Source: Eledone cirrhosa (Eukaryota). From it: a stretch of DNA of 64,000 nucleotides. Position numbers and translations under genes: made by a program. The stretch is taken from contig OZ024740.1 of NCBI GenBank assembly GCA_964016885.1, positions 330,708,001 to 330,772,000 of the forward strand, read 5' to 3'. The notes beneath the pieces are model-generated. The model saw only the letters and a list, made by a program, of their open reading frames with translations. It searched no databases and was not told the DNA's origin. Positions 2,010 through 47,610 of this stretch are shown piece by piece; position 1 is the stretch's first letter, and every line of letters begins with the position of its first letter.

Positions 2010-2180
2010 AAAAAGAAAAGGCCAGCAATTTGAAGGAAAAGGAAAAGTCGATTAAATTGACCCTAGTGTTATACTGGTATTATATATTATCGACCTAGTA
2101 TAAAAGGCAAAGCAGACCTCGCCGGGAATATAACTCAGAATATAAAGGGCTTAACCATATAGCGCAAAGCTTATTAGTAG
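2010..2180 (-). mobile_element. Degenerate tRNA-derived SINE (octopus-type)
   Basis: Plus strand reads ggccagcaattt...aagtcgattaaattgaccctag...aaaggcaaagcagacctcgccgggaatataactcagaa, the reverse complement of the SINE body at 8570 and 15520. Confidence 0.7.
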
Positions 2181-4086: not shown

Positions 4087-4280
4087 TAATTGTTTCTACT
4101 TTGGGCACAAGGTCAGCAATTACCTACAGTGCATTACTGATGCTTATTTTATAGACCCGTTAAGGTTCAAAGGCAAAGTTTACCTCGGCGAGATTTGGAC
4201 TCAGAACGTAAAGGGCCAAAACGCTATGCTCAAAGGCATAATATCTAACGCTCTACCGATACTGCCAATTCATGCCCTTG
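4087..4280 (-). mobile_element. tRNA-derived SINE (octopus-type)
   Basis: aattgtttctactttgggcacaaggtcagcaatt...aaggcaaagtttacctcggcgagatttggactcagaacgtaaag is the reverse complement of the SINE tail, core and B-box region. Confidence 0.8.
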
Positions 4281-8567: not shown

Positions 8568-8752
8568 AGTGGATTGGCAGTATTGGTAGAGAGCCGGGCG
8601 CCATGCTTTGATGCATAGAGTTACGTCCCTTTATGATATGAGTTCAAATACCGCCAAGGTTAACACTGCCTTTCATCCTTACGGGTCGATAAAATAAAGT
8701 ACGAGTAATGTGCTGGGTAATTGCTGGCCTTGTGTCAAAAGTATAAACAATT
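8568..8752 (+). mobile_element. tRNA-derived SINE (octopus-type), near full length
   Basis: A-box-like tggcagtattggta, B-box-like gagttcaaatacc, core gcctttcatccttacgggtcgataaaataaagtac, tail gctggccttgtgtcaaaagtataaacaattat. Confidence 0.85.
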
Positions 8753-11060: not shown

Positions 11061-12248
11061 ATACAAGAATCCCGATCAAATTAAATGTATCTACACACTC
11101 AAATGATATGCATATTCATCAAGAGATCATGTTAACAATCTATATGTTTATATATTTATATAGAACCCTTAATCTAATATTAATCATATCATAAATGAAT
11201 AACAAATTTATTATAATAAGGTTTTATAATCTGTTATAACATTTTACGCACTCAGTTGATAAGAGACGTAACAAATTAGAAGCTATTTATTTAGTGTGTT
11301 TTCCTGACTTTTTGCGAGGCTTGGAATGTAGAGGAAACTTTATGAAGGCAATTTGAGAATAATTCACTTTTTTTGTTAATTAACGTTTTCATAATTAGTA
11401 ATTATTAATAGGGTATCCATGATACACAGATTGCAATTAGGGGATATTGAAGATTTCAAGTAAATTCGACTATTGCACAGCTTCGACCAAGAAATCGAGT
11501 ATTTTAAATTTTTGTCTTTTAACGACCATATAAGTTGTGATAAAGAAGTCGATGATTTCCTATTAGGATTCGAAAAAGAGCATTTGTGATTCGAACATCT
11601 TTATTTAAATGTCGATGAAGTTGCACCAATATAGTTGTATGTGATGTTATTTGCTTTTAGGGTGCATTAATAGACCAGATTGCTATCCAGGCAATTATTT
11701 TGCAGAGGGCAATTTCATCTATTTCTACAATTACATTTCGATATATTGTTATTACTATAAATTGGACAATTGACATTAACATTGTTAGTACTTTGAAGTG
11801 TTCTATTGATTGAGCTTTGATTAAAGTTATTGTTATTCCTAGTATTAATATTTCTAGTGTTATTATATTCATTATCGTTAATTATTTATTGATTATGATT
11901 TAGAATACTGCTATTTATTTTTGCGATGTTCTGGGTCATATTCATAGTTGTAGAATAAGAGAGCTTAATTGTGTGTCTGTTAAATATGGAACGATATTTG
12001 TGTTGAATGGGAAGCATTTATCTAAAGCTTTAAAGAATAGATTTGCGAGTGGTGTTTTTATTGCTACAGAAGCTGGGAGGGGGGGGGGTGCTAAATAACT
12101 GATTTAGTTCTGATTTTTTTCACCGATTTATTCAAGGTATTTGTGTTTGTATTAGAATTTTTAGAATCTCGTTTATATATTTTAGTCTTATTTTTATCAG
12201 GATTATAATTAAAATTATTATTATCTATAAATTCAATATTATTTTTCT

Positions 12249-12338
12249 TTGCCTTTCATCCTTATGGGGTTGATAAAATAAAGTACCAGTAATATACTGG
12301 AAAATTGCTGGTCTTGTGCCAAATGTAGAAATAATTAT
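12249..12338 (+). mobile_element. 5'-truncated SINE inserted in the Penelope ORF
   Basis: ttgcctttcatccttatggggttgataaaataaagtaccag...gctggtcttgtgccaaatgtagaaataattatt. Confidence 0.8.
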
Positions 12339-13367: not shown

Positions 13368-15514
13368 GCACATATATGTGTTTATGTGCACGCATTCATG
13401 TTTATGTGTGGAGGTGTGTGTTCGAATATGCTTATCGATTTGTATATTTGCTCATCTGTATGTGTCCGACAAAACATATGCGAATATTAAATGTGTAAAT
13501 CTACTTTTATCAAGTTTTCATTATCAATATAACATGTGAAATGTTTCCTGCGTTATTGATATACTGCCAAATGTAAGACAAGATGAATGTAACAAAAATA
13601 TTTATCTGTTTGAGACAAAGTTACTGCAATAGATTTGAAATTTGAGTATTGGAAATTATATGAATATCTTGTGTAGAAGCATTTTCCACCTTGATTAGCA
13701 TATCTTTCACATTCGCAGTAAAAGGCTAAGAATCGTCAACTGGCTTATTATCTTAATGGTTTTCTGTTCATTTTGGTATTTAAAAATAAACTTCTGCAAA
13801 CAACTAATATTTTGCAGAGTCAGTTTATTTACGGTTAACGATTTCTCACCTGCTGCCATAAAGGCAAAAACATTATCTAAAACCTCGCAGCGAGTCTCAC
13901 AAAACAAACATGACATGTATCATGCAACTGAAAACACCAGCGACTGTTTATTTCATTTCTTTTTAATACACTAAAAGGAATTGTTATGGATTTCCTTGTG
14001 AATAACTCAAAAATATATAATTGAAATATACCATATATTACATATTAAAAATAACAGAAAAGTACCTTGCATTCGCTCATATTTACCATTAAATAATGAA
14101 TTACGAATAATATCAACGGGCAGGCCAATTCCTGATGAAATGTCGATTGTACTGGCTTTGATTACATAAGTGTTCAGTCATGTCTTAAACAACAAACACA
14201 GCAAATTCAAATATTATTCTCAGTATATTATCAGTAACACAACCACCAGGAGAATATAGTCTAGGTAATTCATGAAAGGGACCCCCCACCCACCTCGCAT
14301 CAAATTAGGTAAAATATTAAAACACCTCACAAAGGTTATCCTGTCATCCTCAATACTCGTTGTGGACACATTTCATGATCCCAAATGTATAAATCTTTGT
14401 GCCAGGTATGATGTGGAATCGAGTGAATTTATTATTTCCCACTCATAGAAATTCGTTGTCTATTTTCATTGAAATCATTCATTATTTAAATTTCAGGAAA
14501 AAAATTAAACTTAAGATATTATATCAGTCACATTGTATGAATCTAGTTATGTTGATTGTAATGACATTATTGCAAATAATCGGAGAGAGGAAAAGGAAAG
14601 AAACGACTAACTTTCTTTGACAAGAATTTAAGTTGTCAGGTGCTCAATAAAAGAATAAAAATCAAATCGTCTTTCATATGATTCTCCAAAAAACGAATAC
14701 TATAAACGTTTTCTTAGATAAATAGGACACGACACTTTTATAAGGAATGTCTTTGAGACATGTCTGGTATTGATCTTATTAAACCCTGCAGTGTTGGAAT
14801 TTAAAAGAGTTCCAGAAGATAATGATAAAAGAAAAAAATACAAAATATATAGGAAATAGAATGACATTTTATTGATGCATTAAGGTATGATTAAAATATT
14901 TGTTACGAAACTTTTGTTTACATAGGAATATCATATCCTATTCATATTTCGTATGTAACAGCGTATTATTATATCGCGTTAATACAATTTGCGGTCAACG
15001 CAAAGCAAGATAAATTCATTACCATATTATTTCCTGGTTGCTACTTAAGTCAGAAAATTACTAGTCTGCTCCATTCTGTAATACTTGTTTCAGCTTTCAT
15101 TGTTCGTCTTGTATTGAGTTTATACAGCAAGGTTTTGAATTGTGTCTGGGAGTGGTTCTATGAGTGCAATTTTGTGGTTTTGTGAAATAGGGATTGCAAT
15201 CCAAGTCAGCATTAATTATATTCAGAAACCATGCTCATCAGCTTCTCTTCTTATTGTCACATACGCAGTGGTTATGTTTCGCACAATCTTCTTTAGGTAG
15301 CATGTTTAGCATACTTTTCAGATTATGTCTGACGACAGCATGAATAAAAAGTTAAAATCTGTGCGAATCCAGGAAAACATCAAGACGATGATTATTTAAC
15401 AAATGAACCGAAACTTATCATGAGAAAGAGGAATTTAATAACTTAAACAAATGAATTGTAATTGTCGTCTAAATGCCTATGCGACTTTTATGGAAACGCC
15501 CCTGTTCCTATCGG

Positions 15515-15673
15515 ACGCCATGCTTTGCAGCACAGTTACGTCCTTTTACGGACTGAGTTCAAATCCTGCCGAGGTTAACTTTGCCTTTCATCCTTACGGG
15601 ATTGATAAAATAAAGTACCAGTAATACACTGGGATAATTGCTGGCCTTGTGCCAAAAAGTAGAAACAATTATT
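15515..15673 (+). mobile_element. tRNA-derived SINE (octopus-type), slightly 5'-truncated
   Basis: gagttcaaatcctgccgaggttaactttgcctttcatcc...gctggccttgtgccaaaaagtagaaacaattatt. Confidence 0.85.
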
Positions 15674-22300: not shown

Positions 22301-22304
<4 letters not shown>

Positions 22305-25300
22305 TTCTTTTTATTAACCACATGGGTTGACATAAAGCATAACAATCGTGTAAAGAAAACAAAAATAAAACAAAGGAAATGACAAGAAAAAAAGAAACAA
22401 TGCTCAGAAACTGGACGAGTGCTTGCACGACTGGTTCTAGCCCTGCGCGCAACTCGGATAGACCCGGTTGACGGCTCTTTCATACCTGTAGAGTTTATCT
22501 CAAACTGGCAAAGCTACCCAGTAGCAATGCCAGGCCAGGGATTTGTGGAAGTTGTCCCAGGGCCTGGGTTTGAAAGTTCCCCTGAAGAGATTGGCAAGTT
22601 GATTTTCGTCGACGTCCATAATCTCCCCAACGACATCATCGCACTACCCCTCCACTAATCATTTATATAACGCCAAATTGGAGTTTCTACCGATCGCATC
22701 ACCCGGTATCCTTATTACAAGCGCTCCTTCTCGGTCTTCGTTTGAACCAGGACTGCAGTTCTGTCAAGGAGACGGGCTGGGGAAAAATACGTCTAGCAAA
22801 CGGCGACCACACCTGATATCTTCAAGGATGAGGTAGAGATGTCGTAGCCTGAGCGTATGTTTGAGCATCTTCAGTCACGGCATGGCCAGCCATCCACGTA
22901 GCTGGTGTTGACAGCAAATGAATCGCCTGACGATCCGAACGCACCCCTTTCCCAGAGGCGAAAGAGCCAACGCTCCAAAGCAGTCAGGTGAGGCTTAGGC
23001 AAGGCACGACGGTCAGCCGGTAGTAGATGACGGAAGCGCTATAAGCGATCACGACCCCGCTCGAGCTTTGAGGGACAGTTTCTTTTCGGCTGATTTCTGT
23101 GTGAGAGAGGCCACCCTCCTCGTCACCTCGTCCCAGTTTTGTCCGTCAGGAGGTCGAAACCAGGTGATTTACCTATTGTGCAGTCAGTCATTGCTACCTG
23201 TATTTCAGCGGCTGACTCACAACACCCCGCCTCTGTGACTGAGAGCCGTGGCACTCTGGCGAGGTACGCGCTAAACTGGTCCTTGGATCGGACCCACTAC
23301 TTACCACGAACAGCTGAGCGAAATGTCGCACAAAAGCCTCACACATTTGCTCGGGTTCCAGTATCATGCGCCCGTTATGGTCCACCAAAGACCAGAGCGT
23401 GACTTTGTTGCCACGACGCGCCTCCAGAACTCAGGCACTTTGAACCGCTCTCGTCCAGTTGTTTCTGAGAACACGTGCCCTAGCTCTGACAACGTCAGCG
23501 GCTCATTGTTATTTTCTAACTGGTTTTCCCTCTGCTCTATTTCTCTCTATTGCTAACGCCTTACTAAAAATAATGTACTCTGTTATAATCGGCCTTTTCA
23601 GGGTCAACCACCATTTGTTGTTGTCAATTACCTCCGTCAATGCCCGCTCAACTAATTGGCTAATCCGGTCTCTGTAGGCTATGCGCGCTATCATCGACTC
23701 ATATATCTTCCAGTAGCTGTCTCCCTGTATATAAAACCTATCTAAGTAGACCACACAGATCACGAATTTATGGTCTGTGTAGTCGACTATTTTGAATTGT
23801 GGACAACCTGTGCTAGAAATATCTATTTCCCTGCAAGATCCTGTATCTAGATACGATTTGGATGACTCGATACGGCTTGTCCATGTCTACGTTGGCACAC
23901 TCGGAAAATTCAATCTTTACCTGTCAAACAGTTGGAAACCACTGAGCAGATTTGCAAGGCTTTTCCACACTCCTTCCCTATCCCCTAATCCCACACAATC
24001 CCAGCGTGCATCCAATATCCCGTTCCAATCGCACACTAACATTAAAGAACGGCACATTCCTCGGAAGTTCTCCAGTCGCGTGAAGAAATCAAGGCATCCT
24101 GCTCCTGTCGGGGCATAAACAGCTGCTGGTCGCGTCCAGCACCACCGACTTACCTTCTAGGGCCAGGAAGATGGTCCGTATCACGAGGTCCTGGCCTCTC
24201 TGAAACAACACAGCGACTCCGCCTCCCGATCTGGGTAGGCTTAGAGATACATCGTAACAGCGAAAGATGGGTGCGAAGGCATGTGCCTCGAACATTTTGG
24301 TCTCGTTTCCATGCTTTCATGACGACTCCAGTTTATGCTGCCTATTCTGAGTAAGGTCATGTTGAAAAGGAATGGGAAAAGATGGGAAAGACCACTTACC
24401 TCACTTCTTGTATAGTAAAGACGATTTTTCGGTCCTTCAGATTGCTTGTGGCCCCCTCCGGAAGGATGTCTTTATATACCCTCTTGGAAAGTGTTTTTCG
24501 GAAATCTCCGATGCCCTTAGGGAATTTTGATATAATGTTGTATATGTTTTCTGTGAGAGACGAGTGATTTGTATGTGTGCAGTGTGTGTGAATTTATGTG
24601 GTGTTGTATAGTTTAAGTCTGTGATGCTGGTGTTGTGTTGGATGTACTGTAATAATTGATTATTATAAGTTTAATGCTACGTAGTGTTTCGCTTTGGCTG
24701 CTTTGTTTTGTTTGCGTTTGTTGTAGGTTTGTTTCTGGTTCGCTTGTTGGTGTTTTTGTGGTGTTGGGGATCGGGGTGTTGAGGTTGATGATGGCGATGG
24801 CGCTCGTGATGCTAGTGCGGGTGGTGGCTAAGCTGTTTTAACTTTCTTGTTTCTTATTTTGTTTCGCCCTCTATTTCCTGTTTGGAGGGCGAAGGAAGAT
24901 GTATTTTTCTTTTTTGGTTTCTTTTTTTCCAAGATACAGTTTCCCACCCCTCTTCCTCGTCACAATCCGTCCCAGTCGTGAGAGGTCGGGGAGTGGAATT
25001 TCCGCTACAGGCATTGGCTTTCGTTGTGTGTGGTGGATGGTGGAGTCGCTGGTCATACTTCTGAGTGGTGGGAGCTGATGTTGTTGGTCTTGCTACTGTT
25101 GCTGCTACAGTTGCAACCGTCGTGGCTGCTGCAGTTGCCGCTGCAATTTATGCTACTGGTTTTGAAGGCTGAGCCACTGGGGTGGGTAGGAGAGGTGGCC
25201 GGGCAGAAGGCCCTTAGGTGGGCTCCCTCGCCACAAACGACACACCTACACCTTCTGCCTTCAACGATTACGGTGAGGTGGCTGCCGTCATTGAGGTCTA

Positions 25301-26484
25301 TCACAGTTGGAACCTCTTGGATTTTTTTGGTCAGCTTGGATCAGGTGCTCCATTCCAGATCCGGACCAGTTCTCCTGCTATACTCTAATCACCTCAATCA
25401 CCTTTGGGTCGGCTTCGATGTCGGCGAGGATGTAAGCCAGGGAATTTGAAAGACCGGCGGAACATGGGTCACGTTTATTCTTACGAGACTTTGAACTCGT
25501 GTGAACTCGTCACATTTTAATGGGGCCATAGAGTGCTGTCTGGCTTCCAGTGGGTTTCCAAAGAACACCTCCACTGTTCCACATCTTTGCCCACGTCGGA
25601 TGTGTGTTTTTGTGCCCACACATGTCCAAAGCTATTTGGATCTGGGTCTTGGATGCCGGCTCCACTCCGCGTGTTTTATATTGATCGTGCGGAATGATAT
25701 AGTACATAGTTTGCCCTGCTCCATGGTACTTGTTGGCGGGTGAGGCTGACCATGTAACCATTCTTCTTCACCATTCGCCTGACCTCATTCAGTTCTTGCT
25801 GGCTTACCTCAATCGTTTCGCCGCTTTAACAAAAAAACACATTTGGTTTTGCGCTGGTGTTGGTGTTTTTGTTGTTATTATTATTGTTGCTGCTGTTGCT
25901 ATCGTTGTTATTGTTATTTTTGTTATTATTATTATTTGTTCAGTTGTTGCTGTGGTGGTGCCAGTGGCGTTCGACTTGGGAGAATCCATTTTACCACGAG
26001 ATGTTTTTGTTTCAGTTATTGCTGTGGTGGTAGTGATATCAGTGGTGTTGGATGTACTGCTCGACACTGTGGTGGTGGAGATAGCGGCTTTAACACATGT
26101 ACACATTGGCAAAGTCAGGAAGTCTACGTCTGCACGTGGAAAACCTTGGTAAACTGCGCTTATTGCTGATGCTGTTATCGAAAACGTTATTGGTTTTGGC
26201 AATTGTAGCAAGGTCCATAATGGTGGTGGGAGTAGTGTGTATGTTAGATTTGCTGTCACAAGACAGCTGGTTATATTTGGGGAGACGAATGCCATCCATA
26301 TTTAAAAATAAAGTTGTTTGTTCGACAAAATAAAGTTTAAATGTTGGGCTCAATGCCTCAATATTATTGAGTATTTTTTTGAGACGGTTAATAATAAACA
26401 TTTCTCATAACTGGCAATTCAAAACAACTGAAAAACAACAAACCTTTGTGGGGCTCCCGATAATGCGCTTCCCTATGCATGACG
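22301..26484 (-). mobile_element. Tx1-like L1-clade element A, degraded, with internal deletions
   Basis: 3' end ggttaataaaaagaacatt at 22301. ORF2 remnants (GGGVAVLF, SYWK, QMCEAF). ORF1 remnants (KTHIRRGQ, VEGRRCRCVVCGEGAHLRAFC). 5' end resembles that of element D and abuts (TAA)n. Confidence 0.85.
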
Positions 26485-26532: not shown

Positions 26533-27274
26533 AGGATACAGAAGGAATGCTAATGGCTGCGCAGAGGCAGGCCCTCAAAACGAAGTGGTTGAAGCACCAT
26601 ATCTACAAGGAGGAGGCTAGCCCACTGTGCAGGATCTGTGGAGAGAGAGAGGAGACTGTGGCTCACATTGTGTCCGAGTGTAAACACCTAGCCCAGACCC
26701 ACTATAAGGGCTGGAGACACGATGTGATGGGCAGGGTGATCCACTGGCACCTGTGCAAAGTAAACAATCTACCACATTCTGAGAAATGGTATGAGCATAG
26801 GCCAGAGGCGGTGATGGAGAACAGTCAGGTGAAGGTGCTGTGGGATTTTAGGATACAGACGGACAAAAAACTGGAACACAATAGACCTGACCTGGTAGTT
26901 GTGGACAAAGAAAAAAGATCGTGCCTGATTGTGGATGTGGCCTGCCCGTTCGACACGAGAGTGCAAGAGAAGGAGAGGGAGAAAATTAACCGATACCAGG
27001 ACCTAAAGTGGGAGGTGAAAAGGATTTGGAACTGCCATGAAGTCAAAGTGATCCCGATTGTCATAGGCGCACTGGGGACTATCTCCAAAGGTTTCCAGGG
27101 ATGGTTAAAGAAAATCGGCCCCTTCACGCTTTTTGGAACGCTTCAAAAGGCATGCTTGCTTGGAACGGCAAGAACCCTCCGATACGTCCTGAATATCTGA
27201 GGCTGCAGGTAGTGGCTTGATATTCAATCCAACGGACTTTCCAGTTAACCAACATCAATGACTGAGATTCAAGG
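26533..27274 (+). mobile_element. R4/Dong-like RLE retrotransposon family 1, 5'-truncated copy
   Basis: ORF 26547-27200 has CRICGEREETVAHIVSEC (CCHC), RHD, RPDLVVVD, VDVACPFD and KINRYQDL (PD-D/ExK nuclease). Short 3' UTR, then (AAT)n. Confidence 0.92.
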
Positions 27275-27286
27275 AATAACAATAAC

Positions 27287-27330
<44 letters not shown>

Positions 27331-27331
<1 letters not shown>

Positions 27332-28409: not shown

Positions 28410-28441
28410 AATAACAACAACAATAATAATAATAATAATAA

Positions 28442-29009: not shown

Positions 29010-29259
29010 GATTTCTTTATTAACCACAAGGGTTTACATAAAGTAGACATTAAGGACAGTGCAGGACAATGCAGGACGGTACAAATGGGCATTTCTGCGT
29101 GTAAAAAACAAAAACAGAGGATGTTACAAAAAATAACAATGAAAAATTCCCCAATAGGGGGGAGACTTCGGAGGGACATTTGTGGAGAAAGCCCAGTAAA
29201 AAGCCACAATGACCCTGACCACCAAGGCACGTGCCCTCTCCCAGTTTTCCACCTTTAAT

Positions 29260-32200
29260 TTACAGATATATGCTCAGAGTAGGCCCATTCACTCGGGCCA
29301 TTCTTGCTTCTCTCACCCATCTTTCAACAAAATGCTGGGAAGAGAGTACTTCCCTCTCTACTCTGATTTTCCTTTTCAAATGAAATTTGAAAAAGTCAAT
29401 CAGAGCATCACCGAAGAGGTAAGTGCTCGTCTTCAGCCCTTTCAAACGTGTCCACCATACTATCACTTTCGCCATGGCCACCAGGCAGATAAAAACTGCC
29501 TGCCCTTCCCGGCTAAAGGAGGAGGGCGGGGCAATCCTCACGATGGACTCAGATGATAGCCGGATCCGTCCTAAACGCGACAGCAGGTGTTCGACATAAA
29601 CCCACAAGTCAGCAATTTTCGGACACTGGACGAGTGCGTGCAGGACGGTTTCGTCGCCCTGCGCGCATCTCGGACATGCCCGGCTGACGGCACCTCCATG
29701 CCTGTAGAGTTTATCCCGAACTGGCAAGGCTCCTCGGTAGCACTGCCAGGCCAGAGATTTCTGGAAGTTGTCCATAGGCCCTGGCCCGAAAGTTCTTCCG
29801 AAGAGATTGGCTAGTTGATTTTCGTCGACGCCTAGAGTTTCCCCCAAGTACGTCGTCGCTCTTCCCCTCCACTAATCCTCTATAGAACGCCGAGGTGGAG
29901 TTTCCACCGATCACATTGCCCGATTGGTCGAGGGCTGTGAGCGCCTGAAGACATTCCAGTCTCTAGGCGCTCCCTCTCGGTCTTCGCTTGACCCAGGACT
30001 GCAGCTCCGTCAAGGAAACGAGCTGGGGAAACACGCGTCTAGCAAACGGCGACCACACCTGATCACCGTCGAGGAAGAGGTGGAGATGTCGTAGCCTGAG
30101 CGCGTGCCTGCGCATCATCAGCCACGGCATGCCCAGCCCTCCACGTAGCGGGTGTTGACAACAGATGGACCGCCTGACCATCGGAGCGCGTCCCTTCCAC
30201 AAAAAGCGAAAGAGCAAACGCTCCAGCACAGTCAGGCGAGGCTTAGGACAAGGTACGACGGTCAGGCGGTAGCAGATGACGGACGCGATGTACGCGTTAG
30301 CCACCTCCGCTCGACCTTTCAGGGATAGCTTCCTCGGCCCATTTCTGGGTGAGAGAAGCCACCCTGCTCGTCACCTCGTCCCAGTTTTTGTCCGTCTGGA
30401 GGTCCGGACCGAACCAGACCCCTAGCAATTTAACTGGTCCGTCCGTCCAGCGTCCGACGACGCTGTTGGACGGCATGGACCTGCCTCTCCAGGTGCCGAG
30501 CTGCAGGCCCACTGACTTTTCCTGGTTGATCATTGCTCCTGTCACCGCTTCGTATTCTCTTAGTGTAGTGCCGATCGCCTCGATGTGTTTGGCGTTCGAC
30601 ACCACTACGGTGACATCGTCCGCATATGCTGATACGGATCTTCCGCATCCTAGTTCGCGCGGGACCCCCCTCAACGTCTCCAGTTTGTGCAGTAATGGCC
30701 CGAGAGTCAATACGTACAAGAGGGACGAGAGGGGACATCCTTGGCGGACCGAGCGCATGATGTTGAACGGTTCCGACAGGTGACCGTTCACTCTCACCAC
30801 AGAGCAGATGTCGCTGTGCATGGCAGCGATCCAGCCTCTGAAGACGGGCCCAAAGCCAGCCGCCCTCAGGACTGCCGCTAGGTAACGATGGTCGACCCTA
30901 TCGAAAGCTTTCGACTGATCTAAATTGATCAAGGACCCACCCGTGCCAGGTTCCCTAGCTACCCTCTCTACGATGTATCGCATGAGGTGGAGGTTGTCGT
31001 GGATGGATCTGTCGGGAATGGCGCATGTCTGCGCCTCTCCCACCAGACCACCAACGACAAGCGCCAACCTCTTTGCTAGCACCTTGGCCCAAATCTTAAA
31101 CTCTGTGTTTAGCAGAGTTATGGGCCAGAAATTTTCTATGTTATCCCCCTTGTTCGGATCCTTTCTCAGCAGTGCCACCGCTCCTCGGCTCACAGAACTG
31201 GGAATTCTCCCGTTCTGTTGCCAGTTGCAGTAGACGTCCGCCAAGAGGCCTCCGAACAAGTCTGGCATCTGTACGTAAAGTTCATAGGGCAGACCATCCA
31301 AACCAGGCGATTTACCCCTTGTGCAGCCAGTCATTGCCTCCCTTACTTCAGCGGCTGTTATCGGCTTTTCGCAACACTTCGCCTCAGTGGCCGAGAGCCG
31401 CGGCAGTCCGTCGAGGTAGACACTAAAGTCCATCCCTCTACCCGGCCCACCGCTGCCCCCGAACAGCTGAGCGAAGTGTCGCTGAAAAGCTTCACACATT
31501 TGCCCGGGATCGAGTAGCATGCGCCCGTCGTGGTCCACCAAAGACCGGATCGTGGCTTTGTTGCCACGACGCGCCTCCGCCACTCGGGCCCATTGAACGG
31601 CTTTCGTCCCCTCGTGTCTGAGAGCACGCACCATTGCTCTGACAACGCAGCCTTCGTGCTTTGCATTGAAGAATTGGTCAAGGGGCAATTTCGCCGCAAG
31701 CACGTCGGTCGCAATGCCTTTGCTAAGCGCCTCGTCTAATTTTCTAACTAGTTCTCCCTCTGCTCTATTTTTCTCTATTGCTAAAGCCTTACTAAATCTA
31801 ATCGATTCTATTCTAATCGCTCTTTTCAGAGCAAACCACCACTTGTTGTTGACGATGGCCCCCGTCAACGCCCGCTTAACTAGTTCGCTAATCCGGTCTC
31901 TGTAGGCCTTGCGCGCTGGTAAGGACGCGTTTAGCTTCCAGTAGCCGGGTCCTCGTCTATGAAGCCTATCTAAGTCAAGCACACAGATCACGAATGTGTG
32001 GTCTGTGTAGCTGACTATCTTGAATTGTGGACAGCCTATGCTAGACCTATCTATTTCCCTACAAAATACTCTATCTAGATATGATCTGGATGACCCTATG
32101 CGGTTTGTCCAAGTCCACATTGGCACATTCGGGAAATCCAATCGGTACCTGTCAGACAGTTCAAAACGCCTGAGCAGGTTGGTGAGGCTCTTGCACCCTC

Positions 32201-32678
32201 CACCCCTATCCGCTAATCCCACACAGTCCCAGCGTACATCTAAGATCCCGTTCCAGTCGCCCACTAACACTAAAGAGCGCGACGTTCCAAGAAAGGTCTC
32301 CAGACGCCGGAAGAAATCAGGCCGCCCTGCTCCTGTCGGGGCATAGACGGCCACTAGCCTGAAAGCTTGCCCGTCTCCGCTGGTCACGTCCAGCACCACC
32401 AGCTTACCCTCTGGGTCCAGGAAGATGGCCCGTATGGCGAGATCCAAACCTCTCCGAAAAAGTACAGCAACTCCTCCACCGGATCCAGGACGGCTGGGAG
32501 ATGCGTACACATCGTAGCCGCCGAAGATCGGTGCGAAGGCCCGTGCTTCGGAGATTCTGGTCTCGCTGATGGCCACTACATCTATGTTTAGTGACCTGAG
32601 GTCGTTGAGCAGGTGACCCTGCTTCCAAGACGACCCCAAGCCACGCGCATTTATGCTGCCTATTCTGAGTGAGGTCAT
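29260..32678 (-). pseudogene. Element B ORF2: APE endonuclease, reverse transcriptase, CCHC finger (few disruptions)
   Basis: SINARGL, AISET, GDWN, LDR, TDH, GPGYWKLN, KSPGLDG, DQSKAFD, VRQGCPLS, YADD, CPRC..ETVLHALVQC. Frameshifts near 30330 and 29845, stop at 29963. Confidence 0.92.
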
Positions 32679-32713
32679 GTTTAAAATAGAGTGAAAAAGA
32701 TGGGAAAGACCAC

Positions 32714-34809
32714 TTACCGTACTTTTGGTAGAGGAGGGATGGTTTTTACATCCCTTTTCACTTGATCGTCTGGTGAAGGGACCGTTGAATCGTCCCTTCG
32801 GCTGGTCGTCGGCTCTTCTAAGAGAATGTCTGAGTATACTCTTCGATTGATGGTTCCTCCTAGGTCCCTGAAATCACCAACTGTGTTGGGGAATTTCGTT
32901 TTAATATTTGTGTATTGTTTCTGTGCTATTTTTAGCAGTCTTATGTTAGTTGGCGTTTTGATTGGTGCTGGTATTATGTAGTCCTGTTGTGAAATGTCTG
33001 TGTGTTCAATTATGTAAGTCATTAGTTTCTTGTTGTGTGTATTTATTGCCGTGCATTTGTTTTTCTGGGGGTGGGGTGTGGTTCTGCTATTTTCTTGTCG
33101 TTGTTGCTGGGTGTGTGTGTTTTGTTGTTGTGTTTGCGATGTTGGTGCTTGTGGTGGTGGTGTTGAAGGTGTTGTTGGCGGTGGGGTTGTCGCCGGTGGT
33201 GATGGTGGCGCTAGTGTGGGTGGTGATGGTGTTGGTGTTGTTGCTGCTGTGGGTCTCTTTGCAGTAGACTTTACCCTTTTCTCATTTCTTTCCTCCCTTT
33301 TCAAAGGCGACGATGCGCTGCTTCTGCGTTTGTGCCTTCTTACGACCTTTTGCCATCTCTCTCCCACCTCACACTCCATGTCTGATTCTGTGAGGTCGGG
33401 GAGGGGTACCAACTCCACTCTTTCACTTGTTGTTGTTGGTGATGTTTGCACTGGAGTCTCTGTTGCAGCTGCATTTGGTATTGCTGTTGTTGTTGTTAGT
33501 ATTTCCACTGCTGCTGCTGTTTTTGATTTCCGTGGAGTGGGTATGGGTGCCACGGGCCTATCGTTCCTGGTTGCCGCTTGTCCTGTTGCTGGTAGCCGTG
33601 GAGCCGGATTCGGAAGGAGGGGGGTTTTCTCCTTTCTCAGGGTCTTCTCGTTGCAGAAGGCCCTGAGGTGAGTCTTCGATCCACAGCGAAAGCATTTCGG
33701 GCGTTTGCCCTCAACACTTATGGGCAGTTGAGTGCCGTTATCGAAGTCTATCACATCCGGGATAGCTTCGATGCACTCCTGGTTGGTTTGGATTAGCATC
33801 TCAATGGAGGAGCCGACCCAATCTTCTCTTACTTTTTTCTGTACTTGCAGTACAGTTGTTTTGTCCTCGATTCCGACGAGGACAGACGCGGCCAGCCAAG
33901 AAGGGGTCATTCCGGGGGGGACGTGGGTCAGTTTGACCCTCACAATTTTTTGCCCACAGTAGGAGGGCACCAACACCATTTCCTCGCTCCTTAGGGTCAC
34001 TACTGATTGGGCCTTTGCCTCCTGGGGTGTGGCAAAAAGTACGTCTACGGTGGCATATTTTTTGCCTCGGGTGATGTGCGTTTTCCGCTGCCACACAGAC
34101 CCCAAGGCTTTTTGTATTTGGGCCTCTGTGGCTCTTTCCACCCTACGGGATTTTGTACTTACTGTACGGTACGTGACCGTACAGTGCTCTTGGGTTTCGA
34201 AAACATTTTTCGCTGCCTTGCAGATTGCTCGGTGTCCGTTGTTTGTCACCATCTTCTTCGCTTCCTCTAATTCCTCATTTGTTATGAGGATTGTTTCCAA
34301 GTTTTTCGCAATACCTGCAAATGAGATTGGTTTTTCTCTGCTGTTGTTGTTGTCGTCAGAGCTGCTGGTACTTTTGTTGTTGCTGCTGGTACTACGACTA
34401 CTGCCTCCGCCGCTGTTGCTGTGGTTGTTGTTGGTGTTGCTGCTGCTAATGCTGTTGTTGTTTATGCTGCTGGTGATGCTGTTGGGCTGCTACTGTTGTT
34501 TTCATTGTCACTGTTGCTGTTGTTATTACGGCTGCTACTGCTATTATTCCTGACGTCAGACGAATGAACTGGGTTTTCGTATTTCCCGCACACCTGTTTC
34601 GTAGCTGTCGTCGTCGTCGTGGAGAAACCTTGCACGCTTTGCACGAGACTTTTCTTTTCTTTCGTCACTTGCGAAAGAGAAGGGAGGGAGAGAGACACAT
34701 TTAAAGAAGGGAGGGAGAGAGACAATCTTCTCTCTGCTGTAGTGATGATTGAGGAAGAAGAAGACGGAATGAGTGGGAGTGACGTATGAAATTTCTTTTT
34801 CGTAGCCAT
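32714..34809 (-). pseudogene. Element B ORF1 (zinc-knuckle nucleic-acid-binding protein), one apparent frameshift near 34480
   Basis: ORF 32714-34300 has CFRCGSKTHLRAFC (CX2CX4HX4C) and a Pro/Thr-rich tail. The frame extends upstream through an Asn/Ser-rich tract and SFAGIAK. The ATG at 34809 is one frame off. Confidence 0.85.
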
Positions 34810-35024
34810 GTTGTTTTTTGTTTAAAATGAAATTTTGGGTACAAAACCCCAATAACTGATTATTTAACCCCGAAGGGCCAAATAACGGACAGAAAGACCC
34901 CTCTCACGAGGAGGAGGGTGTCTTTATCAACAATTTGGTTCAAGTTTTAAACAATTTACAATTGTTTTAACAGTTAAAAATTACTATACCTTACAGAGCC
35001 GAGCCTCCGTCAACCATGGCATTC

Positions 35025-35100: not shown

Positions 35101-35643
35101 GATTTCTTTATTAACCACAAGGGTTTACATAAAGTAGACATTAAGGACAGTGCAGGACAATGCAGGACGGTACAAATGGGCATTTCTGCGTGTAAAAAAA
35201 ACAAAAACAGAGGATGTAACAAAAATAACAATGAAAATAACAATGAAAAATTCCCCAATAGGGGGGAGACTTCGGAGGGACATTTGTGGAGAAAGCCCAG
35301 TAAAAAGCCACAATGACCCTGACCACCAAGGCAAGTGCCCTCTCCCAGTTTTCCACCTTTAGTTTACAGATATATACTCAGAGTCGGCCCATTCACTCGG
35401 GCCATTCTTGCTTCTCTCACCCATCTTTCAACAAAATGCTGGGAAGAGAGCACTTCCTTCTCTACTCTGATTTTCCTTTTCAAATGAAATTTGAAAAAGT
35501 CAATCAGAGCATCACCGAAGAGGTAAGTGCTCGTCTTCAGCCCTTTCAAACGTGTCCACCATACTATCTCTTTCGCCATGGCCACCAGACAGATAAAAAC
35601 TGCCTGCCCTTCCCGGCTAAAGGAGGAGGGCGGGGCAATCCTC
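35101..35643 (-). mobile_element. Tx1-like element C, 5'-truncated 3' end
   Basis: Near-identical to 29010-29540. (TAA)n at both ends. Confidence 0.92.
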
Positions 35644-35660
35644 AATAATAATAATAATAA

Positions 35661-35914: not shown

Positions 35915-35936
35915 TAATAATAATAATAATAATAAT

Positions 35937-40549: not shown

Positions 40550-40870
40550 GGCTGCAGGTAATGGCTTGCTATTCATTTCAACAAACTTTCCAGTTAACTA
40601 ACATCAATGACTGAGACTCAAATAATGTTTTCTTTATTAACCACAAGGGTTTACATAAAGTAGACATTAAGGACAGTACAGGACAATACAGGACGGTACA
40701 AATGGGCATTTCTGCGTGTAAAAAAAACAGAGGATGAAATAAAATAACAAAGAAAAATTCCCCAATAGGGGGGAGACTTCCGAGGGACATTTGTGGAGAA
40801 AGCCCATTAAAAGACCACAGTGGCCCTGACCACCAGGGCAAGTGCCCTCTCCCAGTTTTCCACCTTTAAT

Positions 40871-43800
40871 TTACAGACACATACTCAGAGAAGGCCCATT
40901 CATTCGGGCCATACTTGCTTCTCTCACCCATCTTTCAACAAAATGCTGGGAAGAGAGCACTTCCCTCTCTACCCTGATTTTCCTTTTCAGATGAAATTTG
41001 AGAAAGTTAATCAGGGCATCACCGAAGAGGTAAGTGCTCGTCTTCAGCCCTTTCAAACGTGTCCACCATACTATCTCTTTCGCCATGGCCACCAGACAGA
41101 TAAAAACTGCCTGCCCTTCGCGGCTAAAGGAAGAGGGTGGGGCAATCCTCACGATGGACTCAGCTGATAGCTGGATCCGTCCTACACGTGACAGCAGGTA
41201 TTCGACATAAACCCACAAGTCAGCAATGCTCGGACACTGGACGAGTGCGTGCAGGACGGTTTCGTCGCCCTGTGCGCATCTCGGACATGCCCGGCTGACG
41301 GCACCTCCATGCCTGTAAAGTTTATCCCGAACTGGCAAAGCACCCCGGTAGCACTGCCAGGCCAGGGATTTCTGGAATTTGTACATAGGCCCCGGCCCGA
41401 AAGTCCTTCCGAAGAGATTGGCTATTTGATTTTCGTCGGCGCCTAGAGTTTCTCCAAGTACGTCGTCGCTCTTCCCCTCCACTAATCCCCTATAGAACGC
41501 CAAGGTGGAGTTTCCACCGATCACATTGCCCGATTGGTCGAGGGCTGTGAGCGCCTGAAGACATTCCAGTCTCCAAGCGCTCCCTCTCGGTCTTCGCTTG
41601 ACCCAGGACTGCAGCTCCGTCAAGGAGACGAGCTGGGGAAAAACGTTTCTAGCAAACGGCGACCACACCTGATCACCGTCGAGGAAGAGGTGGAGATGTC
41701 GTAGCCTGAGCGCGTGTCTGCGCATCATTGCCACGGCATGCCCAGCCCTCCACGTAGCGGGTGTTGACAGCAGATGGACCGCCTGACCATCGGAGCGCGT
41801 CCCTTCCACAAGAAGCGAAACAGCAAACGCTCCAGCGCCGTCAGGCGGGGCTTAGGACAAGGTACGACGGTCAGGCGGTAGTAGATGACGGACGCGATGT
41901 ACGCGTTAGCCACCTCTGCTCGACCTTTCATGGATAACTTCCTCTCGGCCCATTTCTGGGTGAAAGAAGCCACCCTGCTCGTCACCTCGTCCCAGTATTT
42001 GTCTGTCTGGAGGTCTGGACCGAACCAGACCCCTAGCAATTTAACCGGTCCGTCCGTCCAGCTCCCGACGACGCTGTTGGACGGCATGGACCTGCCTCTC
42101 CAGGTGCCGAGCTGCAGGCCCACTGACTTTTCCTGGTTGATCATTGCTCCTGTCACCGCTTCGTATTCTCTTAGTGTAGTGCCGATCGCCTCGATGTGTT
42201 TGGCGTTCGACACCACTACGGTGACATCGTCGGCATATGCTGACACGGATCTTCCGCATCCTAGTTCGCGCGGGACCTCCCTCAACGTCTCCAGTTTGTG
42301 CAGTAATGGCTCGAGAGTCAATACGTACAATAGGGACGAGAGGGGACATCTTTGGCGGACCGAGCGCATGATGTTGAACGGTTCCGAAAGGTGACCGTTC
42401 ACTCTCACTACAGAGCAGATGTCGCTGTGCATGGCCGCGATCCAGCCTCTGAAGACGGGCCTAAAGCCAGCCGCCCTCAGGACTGCCGCTAGGTAACGAT
42501 GGTCGATCCTATCGAAGGCTTTCGACTGATCTAAATTGATCAAAGACCCACCCGTGCCAGGTTCCCTAGCTACCCTCTCTACGATGTATCGCATGAGGTG
42601 GAGGTTGTCGTGGATGGATCTGTCGGGAATGGCGCATGTCTGTGCCTCTCCCACCAGACCACCAACGACTAGCGCCAACCTCTTTCCTAGCACCTTGGCC
42701 AAAATGTTGAACTCTGTGTTTAGTAGAGTTATGGGCCTAAAATTATCTATGTTATCCCCCTTGTTCGGATCCTTTCTCAGCAGCGCCACCTCTCCTCGGC
42801 TCACACAGCTGGGAATTCTCCCGTTCTGTTGCCAGTTGCAGTAGACGTCCGCCAAGAGGCCTCCGAACAAGTTTGGCATTTGTACGTAAAGTTCATAGGG
42901 CAGACCATCCAAACCAGGCGATTTACCCCTTGTACAACTAGTCATTGCATCCCGTACTTCAGCGGTTGTTATCGGCTTTTCGCAACAATCCGCCTCAGTG
43001 GCCGAAAGCCGCGGGAGTCCGTCGAGGTAGACATTAAAGTCCATCCCTCCCTCCGGCCCGCCACTGCCCCCGAACAGTTGAGCGAAGTGTCGCTGAAAAG
43101 CTTCACACATTTGCCCGTGATCGAGTAGCATGCGCCCGTCGTGGTCCACCAAAGACCGGATCGTGGCTCTGTTGCCACGACGCGCCTCCACCACTCGGGC
43201 CCATTGAACGGCTTTCGTCCCCTCGTGTCTGAGAGCACGCACCCTAGCTCTGACAACGCAGCCTTCGTGCTTTGCATTGAAGAATTGGTCAAGGGCCAAT
43301 TTCGCCGCAAGTACGTCGGTAGCGATGCCTTTGCTAAGCGCCTCATCTAATTTTCTAACTAATTCTCCCTCTGCTCTATTTTTCTCTATTGCTAAAGTCT
43401 TACTAAACCTAATGGACTCTATTCTAATTGCTCTTTTCAGAGCAAACCACCACTTGTTGTTGACGATGGCCCCCGTCAACGCCCGCTTAACTAGTTCGCT
43501 AATCCGGTCTCTGTAAGCCTTGCGCGCTGGTAAGGACGCGTTTAGGTTCCAGTAGCCGGGTCCTCGTCTATGAAGCCTATCTAAGTCAAGCACACAGATC
43601 ACGAATTTGTGGTCCGTGTAGCTGACTATCTTGATTTGTGGACAGCCTATGCTAGACCTATCTATTTCCCTACAAAATACTCTATCTAGATATGATCTGG
43701 ATGACCCTATGCAATTTGTCCAAGTCCACATTGGTACATTCGGGATATCCATTCGGTACCTGTCAGACAGTTCAAAACGTCTGAGCAGGTTGGTGAGACT

Positions 43801-44289
43801 CTTGCACCCTCCTTCCCTATCCACTAATCCCACACAAGCCCAGCGTGCATCTAAGATCCCGTTCCAGTCGCCCACTAACACTAAAGAGCGGGACGTTCCA
43901 AGAAACTTCTCCAGACGCCGGAAGAAATCAGGCCGCCCTGCTCCTGTCGGGGCATAGACGGCCACTAACCTGAAAGCTTGCCCGTCTCCGCTGGTCACGT
44001 CCAGCACCACCAACTTACCCTCTGGGTCCAGGAAGATGGCCCGTATGGCAAGATCCAAAACTCTCCGAAAAAGCACAGCAACTCCTCCCCCCGATCCCGG
44101 ACGGCTGGGAGATGCGTACACATCGTAACCGCCGAAGATCGTTGCGAAAGCCTGTGCTTCGGAGATTCTGGTCTCGCTGATGGCCACTACATCTATGTTT
44201 AGTGACCTGAGGTCGTTGAGCAGGTGGCCCTGCTTCCATGACGACCCCAAGCCACGCGCATTTATGCTGCCTATTCAGAGTGAGGTCAT
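40871..44289 (-). pseudogene. Element D ORF2 (APE-RT-CCHC)
   Basis: ATG at 44289, TGA at codon 5, 841 aa open frame 41725-44250 containing YADD, one frameshift near 41728, C-terminus to 40871. Confidence 0.92.
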
Positions 44290-44323
44290 GTCTAAAAGGA
44301 GTGGAAAAGATGGGAAAGACCAC

Positions 44324-46150
44324 TTACCTTACTTCTCGTACGGGAAGGACGGTTTTTCCATCCTTTTCACTGCTTGTGGCCTCCTCAGGAAGGATGTCCT
44401 TATAAATCCTCCTGGAGAGTGCTTGTCGGAAGTCTCCGATGTCTTTTGGGAATTTTTGTTTTAGTGTCATGTACGTTTCCTGTGTGATGCGAGTGATTTG
44501 TATGTGTGGAGGTGGTGTGAATTTTGGGGTTGTTGTGTAGTCTTTTTCTGTGATGCTGGTGTTGTGTTGGATGTAGTGTAATAATTGCTTGTTGTTCAAA
44601 TTTAATGCTGTGTAGTGTGTATCGTTTTGGTTGTTTTGTTTTGTTTGCGTTTGTTGTGGGTTTGTTTCTGTTTCGCTTTTTGGTGACTTTTGTGGTGTAG
44701 GTGATGGTGGTGTTGGGGTTAATGATGGTGATGGTGTTGGTGTTTGGGTTGATCGGGTTGGTGATGCTGGTGTGGATGGTGGTATATCTGTCCTAACTTT
44801 TTTGTTTCTTAGTTTATTTGTTTCCCTCTGTATTTTGTTTTTGGAGGGGCAAGGAAGAGAATTTTTTCTTTTTTGGTTTCTTTTTTTTTTCCGGATATCG
44901 TTTCCCACTCCTCGTCGTCACAATCTGTCTCCAGTTGTGATAGGCCGGGGAGTGGAAAATCCTCCACAGGCGTTAGTTTTTGTTGTGGCGTGGTGGATGG
45001 TGTAGGCGCCGGTGCTAGTTCTGAAGCGTTGAGTGGTGGTGGTGTTGGTTTTGCTGGTGGTGGTGGGGGTATTGGTTTTGCTACTGTTGCTGGGGTTGTT
45101 GCTGTTATAGTTGCGTCTGTTGTTGCTGCTACAGTTGTTGCTGCCATCACTGCTACTTGTGGTGTTGATGGTTGTGTCACTGGGGTGGGGAGGAGAGGTG
45201 GCCTCAACCTTTTAGCCTGAGGGCAGAAAGCCCTTAGGTGGGTTCCTTCACCACAAACGACACACCTAGGTCTTCTGCCCTCGACAATTACCGTGAGGTG
45301 GCTGCCGTCAGTGAGGTCTATTACCTCTGGGATCTCCTCAATGCTTTTTTGGTCCGCTTGGATCAGAAGCTCCGGACCAGTTCTCCTGCTTTTCTTTTGC
45401 TATTGCTATTATTTTTGTGTTGGCTTCGATGCCGGCGAGGACGGCCGCTATTAGCCAGGGAATTTCGATGGCCGGTGGAACGTGGGTCACCCTGATCTTT
45501 ACGAGTCTCTGGCCACAATAGCTTGGGACGTGTGTGAAGTCGTCACTTCTTAATGGGGCCATGGAGTGTTCTCTAGCCTCCTCTGGTGTTTCAAAGAACA
45601 CATCCACGGTTCCATACTTCTGCCCACGTCTGATGTGGGTTTTTCTTGCCCACACATGTCCCAAAGCTTTTTGGATTTGGGACTCGGATGCCCGTTCCAC
45701 TCGGCGCGATTTTACATTTATTGTTCGATACGACACGGTGCATAGGCGCCGATGCTCCATTTTATTAGGTGGGGGGGGGGGCTGACCCTGTACCCATCTT
45801 TCTTTACCAATTGTTTGGCATTTTCTAAATCCTCCTGAGTTACCGTAAATGCTTCGAACTGTTTTGCTACTCTGGCGAAACTGAGGGTCGATTTTATAAT
45901 GTCATTGTTGTTGTTGTTGCTATCGTTATTTGTGTTAATATTAATTTTAGTTTCAGTTGTGGTGGTGGTGACATCAGTCGTCTTTGGTGGGGAAGAGTCC
46001 ATTTTGCTTGATTTCATTTCGACATCACGAGTTAATTTATTTTTTTCTTCTTTTGTTTCTGTTGTCACGGTGGTGGTGGGGGTGGTGGTTGTCGCGGTGG
46101 TGGTGGTGGTGGAGGCTTTCAGCTGCTTGGTTCAGAGGTGAATTAGCCAT
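44324..46150 (-). pseudogene. Element D ORF1, frameshifted
   Basis: Pieces LSFARVAK, CTVSYRTINVKSRRVERA, PSYCGQRLV, a knuckle region at ~45225-45265, a Pro/Thr tail and RRIYKDIL..VREVR*. The start position is approximate. Confidence 0.8.
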
Positions 46151-46334
46151 TTTTTTTCAAAGAAATTTTTTGATAATAATAAAAGTTTAAATTTTTCCAT
46201 AAATTTTTCCATAAATTTTTCCATAAATGGCAATTTTTAACAAACGGAAATAACAAACCTTTGCAGAGCTCACGATGATACGATTTACTACGTAGGTCGC
46301 CAATAATAATAATAATAATAATAATAATGATAAT

Positions 46335-47596
46335 GTTTTCTTTATTAACCACAAGGGTTTACATAAAGTAGACATTAAGGACAGTACAAGACAATACAGG
46401 ACGGTACAAATGGGTATTTCTGCGTGTAAAAAAGCAGAGGATGAAATAAAATAACAAAGAAAAATTCCCCAATAGGGGGGAGACTTCCGAGGGACATTTG
46501 TGGAGAAAGCCCATTAAAAGACCACATTGGCCCTGACCACCAGGGCAAGTGCCCTCTCCCAGTTTTCCACCTTTAATTTACAGACACATACTCAGAGAAG
46601 GCCCATTCATTCGGGCCATACTTGCTTCTCTCACCCATCTTTCAACAAAATGCTGGGAAGAGAGCACTTCCCTCTCTACCCTGATTTTCCTTTTCAGATG
46701 AAATTTGAAAAAGTTAATCAGGGCATCACGGAAGAGGTAAGTGCTCGTCTTCAGCCCTTTCAAACGTGTCCACCATACTATCTCTTTCGCCGTGGCCGCC
46801 AGACAGATAAAAAACTGCCTACCCTTCCCGGCTAAAGGAAGAGGGCGGGGTAATCCTCAAGATGAACTCAGCTGATAGCTGGATCCGTCCTACACGTGAC
46901 AGCAGGTGTTCGACATAAACCCACAAGTCAGCAATGCTCGGACACTGGACGAGTGCGTGCAGGACGGTTTCGTCGCCCTGTGCGCATCTCGGACATGCCC
47001 GGCTGACGGCACCTCCATGCCTATAAAGTTTATCCCGAACTGGCAAAGCACCCCGGTAGCACTGCCAGGCCAGGGATTTCTGGAAGTTGTCCATAGGCCC
47101 CGGCCCGAAAGTCCTTCCGAAGAGATTGGCTAGTTGATTTTCGTCGACGCCTAGAGTTTCTCCAAGTACGTCGTCGCTCTTCCCCTCCACTAATCCCCTA
47201 TAGAACGCCAAGGTGGAGTTTCCACCGATCACATTGCCCGATTGGTCGAGGGCTGTGAGCGCCTGAAGACATTCCAGTCTCCAAGCGGTCCCTCTCGGTC
47301 TTCGCTTAACCCAGGACTGCAGCTCCGTCAAGGAGACGAGCTGGGGAAAAACGCGTCGAGCAAACGGCGACCACACCTGATCACCGTCGAGGAAGAGGTG
47401 GAGATGTCGTAGCCTGAGCGCGTGTCTGCGCATCATCAGCCACGGCATGCCCAGCCCTCCACGTAGCGGGTGTTGACAGCAGATAGACCGCCTGACCATC
47501 GGAGCGCGTCCCTTCCACAAGAAGCGAAACAGCAAACGCTCCAGCGCAGTCAGGCGGGGCTTAGGACAAGGTACGACGGTCAGACGGTAGTAGATG
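46335..47596 (-). mobile_element. Tx1-like element E, 5'-truncated
   Basis: Near-identical to the 3' 1.26 kb of D. (TAA)n at both ends. Confidence 0.92.
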
Positions 47597-47610
47597 ATAA
47601 TAATAATAAT

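Follow-up and report, generated by a model that had tools for sequence, protein, structure and literature searches.

The window, the whole 64,000-nt stretch of Eledone cirrhosa DNA that we analyzed, contains one 3′ motif that is carried by four copies of a short interspersed element (SINE) and by seven ends of long interspersed elements (LINEs). The SINE copy at 15507..15667 (+) is 5′-truncated, has a B-box-like stretch at 15555-15564, and terminates in GAAACA. Near its 3′ end lies a predicted hairpin with a 4-bp stem and a 5-nt loop, TGGC-CTTGT-GCCA (15642..15654, +). The hairpin is followed by AAAAGTA GAAACA and then, up to 15673, by the junction sequence ATTATT (15668..15673, +), which in most SINE copies is the start of the target-site duplication; the 15507 copy itself has no clear duplication. 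A sequence-only reading of the window had described this hairpin, gaaac, and attatt at 15640..15673, with variants near 8725, near 12309 and, on the minus strand, near 4100, and all of them are there. The near full-length copy at 8570..8749 (+) has A-box-like and B-box-like stretches and an 8-nt duplication, ATTATAGT, that overlaps its 5′ end. A 5′-truncated copy at 12247..12333 (+) has a 9-nt duplication, ATTATTTTT. The hairpins of these two copies (8725-8737 and 12309-12321, both +) contain one G-T wobble apiece. In the full-length copy at 4091..4276 (−), which has a 15-nt duplication that begins ATTATT and includes one mismatch, the hairpin (4103-4115) has decayed, with two of its four pairs broken.

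The LINE ends lie on the minus strand, and from 29 to 56 kb the window is a chain of Tx1-like LINEs linked via ATT runs. Element F (47611..53334) is an L1/Tx1-like LINE of ~5.7 kb with broken ORFs, (ATT)n on either side, and the hairpin GGCC-CTTGT-GGCC at 47624-47636. Element C (29010..35024) is full length, with an ORF1 at 32714-34489 that has a CCHC knuckle, a frameshifted ORF2 (endonuclease, reverse transcriptase [RT], and zf-RVT), and the hairpin AACC-CTTGT-GGTT at 29022-29034. Both ends had been quoted in the sequence-only reading and were readily located. A second full-length C-type LINE (40627..46301) contains the ORF2 part P0002, and its tail adjoins an R4/Dong-like element of the opposite strand, at the point where that element ends in (AAT)n. 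Three further C-type copies are truncated: one at 46335..47597, 5′-truncated, begins right inside the ATT tail of F; a short 5′-truncated one at 35101..35645 lies inside (ATT)n; and one at 53350..56139 is immediately upstream of F. The C-type hairpin thus occurs at 29022, 35113, 40639, 46347, and 53362. A remoter member of the same lineage (22304..25773, 5′ limit approximate) has the CATGT-loop hairpin AACC-CATGT-GGTT at 22316 and an (AT)n end.

Other features are interspersed with these elements. Two elements at 26533-28410 and ~37500-40621 (+) terminate in (AAT)n and, by this tail type, are putatively R4/Dong-like. A two-copy tandem of ~446 nt lies between LINEs (35934-36833). The ORF1 region of a C copy gave a weak Pfam MBD match (45338-45901, −; E 0.0023, below the cut-off) that is probably not real.

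Families C and F both have an ORF1 and an ORF2, the latter with endonuclease (PF03372), RT (PF00078), and zf-RVT (PF13966) domains by Pfam. P0002 aligns with human L1 ORF2p over residues 3-847 (165 bits, E 2e-47) and with Xenopus Tx1 ORF2 at 29% identity (284 bits). Judged from its predicted proteins, namely an ORF1, an APE/RT/zinc-binding ORF2, and full-length likeness to L1 ORF2p, the lineage belongs to the L1 group. Its closest named relative is an Argonauta protein (56-66% identity). In a quick tree built from 37 RT regions, which left out two RTE rows with no RT match and two rows of under 200 residues, the window families and the Argonauta protein form one group (support 99), which lies next to the vertebrate Tx1 group in an open fork. 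Labeled L1 is absent from this tree, and the clade name therefore goes no further than "Tx1-like".

Insertions of this lineage are tied to ATT sequence. The exact 29-nt tail of C occurs 6,459 times genome-wide, and ATTATT directly follows the element in 25 of 30 C copies. Full-length F is ~5.85 kb and has ATTATT within the 5′ flank in 18 of 22 copies. The lineage shows a target-sequence preference, as is typical of the Tx1 clade, though not universal there. Sister Tx1-like families have the same hairpin layout followed by (TATC)n, not (ATT)n (L035, L037, L085, L160, L185, L188, and L209); the element at 22304 is followed by (AT)n and that of L119 by (TC)n. Across sister families the target appears to change while the hairpin stays. 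Among 30 (AAT)n tails of R4/Dong-like elements, reading by eye showed six adjoining Tx1-like ends, one a SINE, and one a CR1 end, all antisense; the putative R4/Dong-like clade and the Tx1-like one thus use one microsatellite from opposite strands.

The SINE is ~190 nt long and often 5′-truncated (one natural copy measures 192 nt). An exact 26-nt pattern from its tail gave 137,049 matches in the 3.0 Gb of genome searched, and the reversed control gave 0. In 800 kb of arbitrary genome (80 pieces of 10 kb) there were 105 matches. The element is short, non-coding, dispersed, and high in copy number, with target-site duplications. A-box-like and B-box-like stretches were recognized in its head by eye, against the box consensus; no tRNA was called by ARAGORN in the window (0) or by Rfam on one full SINE copy (0). 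A short-word search of part of the supplementary files of PMC4824008 and PMC4758252, in which the Meta, CORE, V, and Deu superfamilies were sought, found no match to the SINE body.

The SINE comes in several forms. Longer variants have an extra pyrimidine-rich segment ahead of the same hairpin (window 1975-2250, −; L047, L092, and L094), and their spacer, ATATAA, is closer to the AATAAA of the LINEs. One subfamily (L107-L135) has TATGTG right ahead of the hairpin, comparable to the TATGT ahead of the C and F hairpins. At L147 an F-like tail is fused directly to a 5′-truncated SINE with no ATT between them, possibly by template switch or deletion. Five loci (L015, L021, L027, L161, and L163) hold head-to-tail SINE tandems and repeated heads, with a target duplication between them.

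The SINE and the window LINEs have the same tail layout: a stem of 4 bp closed by a CTTGT loop, then GAAA, and the ATTA junction at 16-17 nt past the loop. This interval is 16 nt in C and most SINE copies and 17 nt in F and the 15507 copy, while the spacer reads AATAAA in the LINEs as opposed to AAAGTA or ATATAA in the SINE. The sequence-only reading had stated that the SINE and LINE tails match in loop, stem length, spacing, GAAA motif, and ATT repeat. For the loop, the stem length, and GAAA this is correct; the spacing, at 16 or 17 nt, is not identical. We collected 111 ORF2 C-termini, many of them redundant, of which 97 have an AATAAA...GAAA end, corresponding to 29 distinct 30-mers. Twelve LINE tails chosen as family representatives (eight from the TATC-associated group) were aligned with three SINE tails. 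The two sides of the stem are GGCC/GGCC in F, AACC/GGTT in C, AGCC/GGCT in G, TGCC/GGCA or TGCC/GGCT in the TATC group, and TGGC/GCCA or TGGC/GCCT in the SINE. In this alignment 90% of the 60 stem cells are paired and three of the four pairs show two-sided changes. The SINE adds one of these, C-G to G-C at the second stem pair. Neither the stem pairing nor the covariation score was reached in 500 shuffles, a control that overstates covariation because the aligned rows are related; slid controls were 15-60% paired. The predicted 3′ stem-loop is conserved with compensatory changes across families, with the provisos that the rows are related and that one pair is SINE-specific. Folding energy was also considered as evidence and lends no support: the hairpin is predicted in four of four tails, with unexceptional z-scores (−0.19 to −1.81).

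We then scored the SINE tails with a two-block model trained on the 12 LINE tails only, with ATT left unscored. The training rows score 29-40 bits and the SINE tails 11.7-12.2 bits. The CR1 end scores −11.4, two RTE ends −9.2 and −21.5, and the R4-like end −22.0. That the likeness arose by chance between AT-rich ends in common ATT sequence is scarcely credible. A chance likeness would be helped by the small number of common letters and by the frequency of ATT arrays (40 in 800 kb). However, only one of 20,000 shuffles of the SINE tail reaches 11.7 bits, and the 12 of 19,994 random genomic 43-mers that do so comprise, by eye, nine SINE tails, two Tx1-like tails, and one unrelated site. With ATT unscored, these counts largely refute a chance origin.

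The converse comparison points to the same lineage. A model trained on the SINE gave 174 matches over the 80 arbitrary 10-kb pieces (800 kb), of which 80 were filtered as SINE. The best 16 of the 94 remaining matches are seven SINE remnants by eye, one unassigned match, and eight Tx1-like tails with scores of 19.2-22.2. Seven of these eight are tied to the 3′ end of L085 (six by blastn, one being L085 itself) and one was assigned by eye. Within these samples the expectation of the sequence-only reading was borne out, in that the best non-SINE matches to the SINE tail are Tx1-like and the sampled RTE, CR1, and R4-like ends failed. The closest LINE hairpin, TGCC-CTTGT-GGCT, differs from the SINE form TGGC-CTTGT-GCCT solely by the flipped pair. 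This best hairpin is found in the (TATC)n families, but the SINE target is that of C and F, the ATT families; the proposed partner is therefore the lineage, with no family pinned.

Identity in letters between the SINE and the LINEs is short, amounting to CCTTGTG plus GAAA. A second short element in the same genome (L048, L083, L100, L121, and others) ends in (TGA)n and shares its last 39-40 nt at 95-100% identity with the RTE family of L099. By its sequence it is likely a classic RTE-partnered SINE. The SINE-Tx1 match is far below this level, and as judged from the tail sequences the pair is much looser than the classic tail capture seen in that element.

Of the LINE repertoire these comparisons took in a part, with a single CR1 family, over 800 kb plus targeted loci. 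It is thus conceivable, if quite unlikely, that the true partner is an unsampled family (L2, Nimb/I, another CR1 or RTE, or an extinct one), and that the likeness to Tx1-like tails reflects convergence or a shared donor. Searches for an exact donor are in keeping with such a partner. A pattern combining the SINE's own closing pairs with AATAAA had six matches genome-wide, all six in SINE bodies and none in a LINE. A second hairpin pattern had 413, and 25 of the 30 read were SINE bodies, with no LINE 3′ UTR recognized by eye in the other five. Among the loci read from three genome-wide patterns no LINE had the exact SINE hairpin. For RTE, CR1, and L1-Tx1 alike, the parts of an octopus annotation considered here also list 13 families with recent activity (PMC13282606). 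On the other side, no repeat end in the 800 kb beat the Tx1-like tails, bar the one unassigned match, and only an abundant partner would be expected to account for a SINE with well over 100,000 copies. The Tx1-like lineage also agrees in target, orientation, and duplication length.

To compare insertion footprints, we used 60 of the 105 SINE matches in the 800 kb, those that include the 3′ end and are 60 nt or longer. ATTA follows 51 of the 60 copies, a count that the query, which ended in ATTATT, may favor. Duplications of 9-22 nt were found in 32 copies. In 21 of these 32 they begin with ATTA, in 94% the first base is A, and the preceding base is C (53%) or T (41%). A looser search found duplications of at least 12 nt in 26 of the 60 SINEs and in 10 of 180 mismatched controls. 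RTE insertions have a different footprint, with a duplication that starts with T (PMC6007223, in the part considered), whereas those of the SINE nearly always start with A. On this ground and on the two tail scores, RTE was rejected as the partner. R4/Dong-like elements were rejected for their different tail and for (AAT)n in the opposite orientation.

One CR1 family also carries an ATT tail, ending GTGC-ACCTGA-GCAC ... C/(ATT)n (slashes mark junctions), and we therefore rejected the ATT tail as a discriminator between partners. The footprint does separate the families. With one script, a duplication of at least 10 nt starting no more than 2 nt from the element end was found in 26 of 60 SINE, 5 of 14 C, and 0 of 26 CR1 copies, and the 5′ flank contained ATTATT in 24 of 60, 6 of 14, and 0 of 26, respectively; flanks were 30 nt for the SINE and 25 nt for the LINEs, the 5′ end was absent in 16 of 30 C and 4 of 30 CR1 loci, and duplications within ATT arrays are ambiguous. 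For SINE against CR1, Fisher p values are ~2e-5 (duplications) and ~4e-5 (5′ ATTATT); against C the value is 0.77. These counts indicate that CR1 makes its own ATT tail, while the SINE and C take ATTA from the target. The SINE footprint, a long duplication starting with ATTA, is that of the Tx1-like family and unlike that of the CR1 family with ATT tails.

C is more closely associated with long arrays than the SINE is. Only 10 of the 60 SINE copies are followed by at least three ATT units, compared with 22 of 30 C copies, and none of the 60 by (AAT)3. Among 40 arrays of (ATT)4 or more in the 800 kb, seven touch a same-sense SINE and one an antisense SINE. The sequence-only reading had taken ATTATT for a repeat tail, and it is mostly the start of the duplication. 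On the (TTA)n enrichment that it had proposed to check, the SINE has the Y/ATTA junction and the long duplications in common with the Tx1-like elements and not with CR1, but most SINE copies lie outside long ATT arrays.

Movement of the SINE by this abundant CR1 family, with its hairpin and C/ATTATT end, is very improbable. Two closing pairs are identical to those of the SINE, the ages overlap, SINEs sit in CR1 tails (8 of 30), a few CR1 copies (L197 and L211) have long duplications past the tail, and bivalve SINEs are known to have CR1 partners (PMC4824008, from the part considered). The loop, however, is another one, the spacer is pyrimidine-rich, the tail score is negative, and the CR1 copies show neither the 5′ ATTATT nor the end duplication of the SINE. 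As neither tail nor footprint is common to both, the one CR1 family compared was rejected as the partner. Some copies of this CR1-like family (L197-L215 and L252-L281) have a duplicated 110-nt 3′ UTR unit.

Nesting was uninformative as to partner. A same-sense SINE lies within 70 nt of the tail in 6 of 30 F copies (0.14 expected), in 8 of 30 CR1 copies, and in 0 of 30 C copies. We rejected SINEs nested in F tails as evidence of partnership, since nesting is equally common in CR1 tails and shows target choice only. Median divergence from the majority sequence is 6.2-6.9% for the SINE (range 3-17), 2.4-2.7% for F, 3.3-3.7% for C, and 3.8-4.3% for CR1. The SINE is older on average than F and C, with overlapping ranges; because SINE subfamilies were pooled and the LINE sets favor similar copies, overlap in age is all that can be claimed.

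The same predicted hairpin and the same footprint in the SINE and the Tx1-like LINEs suggest that the SINE borrows their copying enzyme. We propose, with a probability of roughly 0.6, that the SINE shares its hairpin, junction spacing, and Y/ATTA footprint with a microsatellite-associated L1/Tx1-like lineage whose ORF2 copies it in trans by predicted recognition of the hairpin. That this lineage is the partner is very probable; that it is the partner and the hairpin is recognized as well is reasonably probable. The proposal of the sequence-only reading, that the SINE was mobilized by the Tx1-like lineage or took its tail from it, is supported on tail, target, and age, and mobilization is what we infer from these.

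The mechanism outlined here is modeled on target-primed reverse transcription and on L2 experiments (PMC4176376, in the part considered). RNA polymerase III would transcribe the SINE from its tRNA-like head and read through into flanking ATTATT (step 1). ORF2 would bind the CUUGU-loop hairpin, the pairing of which is kept while its letters change (step 2). The endonuclease would nick the bottom strand opposite Y/ATTA, and the freed ...TAAT end would pair with AUUA of the RNA, so that copying begins 16-17 nt past the loop (step 3). A second nick 9-22 nt away would give rise to the duplication (step 4). The SINE would have kept the hairpin, GAAA, and the spacing and dropped AATAAA, a sequence that would be needed by polymerase II transcripts only; a SINE lacking AATAAA fits a polymerase III transcript. 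An older member of the lineage was probably the source from which its tail was captured, and one stem pair would have flipped afterwards. Each insertion ends in a new C/ATTA or A/ATTA, so tails become targets, which would explain the chains of elements.

A Tx1-like enzyme could also copy the SINE in a relaxed manner, as inferred for the crocodilian SINEU elements, choosing RNA only by pairing of AUUA with the target. The hairpin would then be inherited or serve RNA processing or stability. The footprint evidence needs no hairpin, the stem is short and of unremarkable stability, and SINEU-1, which lacks 3′ similarity to a LINE, was nonetheless assigned to Tx1-Mar (PMC4494074, in the part considered). 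We nonetheless consider relaxed copying unlikely, given that pairing is kept through two-sided changes in both the LINEs and the SINE and that the spacing is constant at 16-17 nt. The SINE also has the hairpin without AATAAA, which argues against a role of the hairpin in polyadenylation.

Borrowing of a LINE enzyme by a SINE is a known kind of partnership, rarely reported for Tx1-like elements. The sequence-only reading had called the partner clade unusual for a stem-loop SINE. A Tx1 partner has a precedent in SINEU (PMC4494074), and the unusual part is the shared stem-loop. The comparisons that follow draw on the parts of the cited papers that we considered. Among 58 pairs, only three SINEs, in maize and Chlamydomonas, have L1-clade tails (PMC3472496 and PMC3747384). 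In these cases, ZmSINE2 and ZmSINE3 with LINE1-1_ZM and SINEX-3_CR with L1-1_CR, an L1-group LINE and a SINE likewise have a common 3′ end. The monocot pairs also resemble ours in a hairpin with a variable, compensating stem and a conserved loop and 3′ flank. The plant and algal pairs, however, have ~50-80 nt in common, with poly(A) at the end of the algal pair, while the octopus pair shares ~25 nt, mostly structure, with no poly(A) seen. SINEU was assigned to Tx1-Mar by common target and overlapping age, with tandem insertions, and in these respects is similar (PMC4494074). SINEU elements, though, have snRNA heads and poly(A) tails, with no LINE 3′ similarity for SINEU-1, whereas the octopus SINE has a tRNA-like head and a 3′ hairpin motif in common with LINEs. 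UnaL2/UnaSINE and zebrafish ZfL2-1 and ZfL2-2 (PMC4176376) offer a model in which ORF2 binds a 3′ stem-loop that is followed by a short repeat. Those pairs are of the L2 clade and shown by experiment; the octopus pair is of the L1/Tx1 group, is inferred, and has a repeat that is largely target-derived.

Simple repeats also flank both sides of Kibi, Koshi, and the crocodilian (TTCC)n and (TTTC)n Tx1 families (PMC4494074, in part). Unlike these, the octopus lineage targets (ATT)n, its sister families have (TATC)n or (AT)n on their 3′ side, and it forms its own branch with the Argonauta protein. A tRNA-type head (putative in the octopus SINE), a body, and a LINE-like tail are likewise found in the mollusc CORE, V, Meta, and Deu SINEs and in octopus OR1/OR2; the portions of these papers considered name CR1, CR1-Zenon, L2, and Nimb as partners (PMC4824008, PMC4758252, and PMC11481361). 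Octopus repeat surveys name no partner in the parts covered (PMC13282606 and PMC8967140). Our literature search, with Repbase, Dfam, the 1994 and 2010 cephalopod SINE papers, and the 58-pair table outside its scope, found no octopus SINE-Tx1 pair and no combination of hairpin and Tx1. Tx1-moved SINEs and hairpin-type L1 pairs are each known.

These observations would fit, with odds somewhat better than even, an animal Tx1-like lineage with stringent, structure-based RNA recognition. Its enzyme would read a CUUGU pentaloop and start copying at a fixed point 16-17 nt downstream, at target-paired AUUA and without poly(A). The SINE, among the most abundant of this octopus-type genome, would have spread keeping only that structure, and the same hairpin would serve enzymes with different microsatellite targets. 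If this is true, stringent recognition in the L1 group extends from plants and algae to animals. A 2012 survey asked, in the part considered, whether strict 3′-end recognition was ancestral in the L1 clade (PMC3472496), and an animal Tx1-like lineage with a hairpin-based partner SINE would be relevant to the answer. With a hairpin of just 13 nt, compensatory variants that occur naturally, and a target that is defined, the pair would lend itself to tests on a very small object. It is also of a kind that ordinary BLAST-based partner searches could miss, and it would identify what probably drove a major expansion of SINEs in a genome of octopus type.
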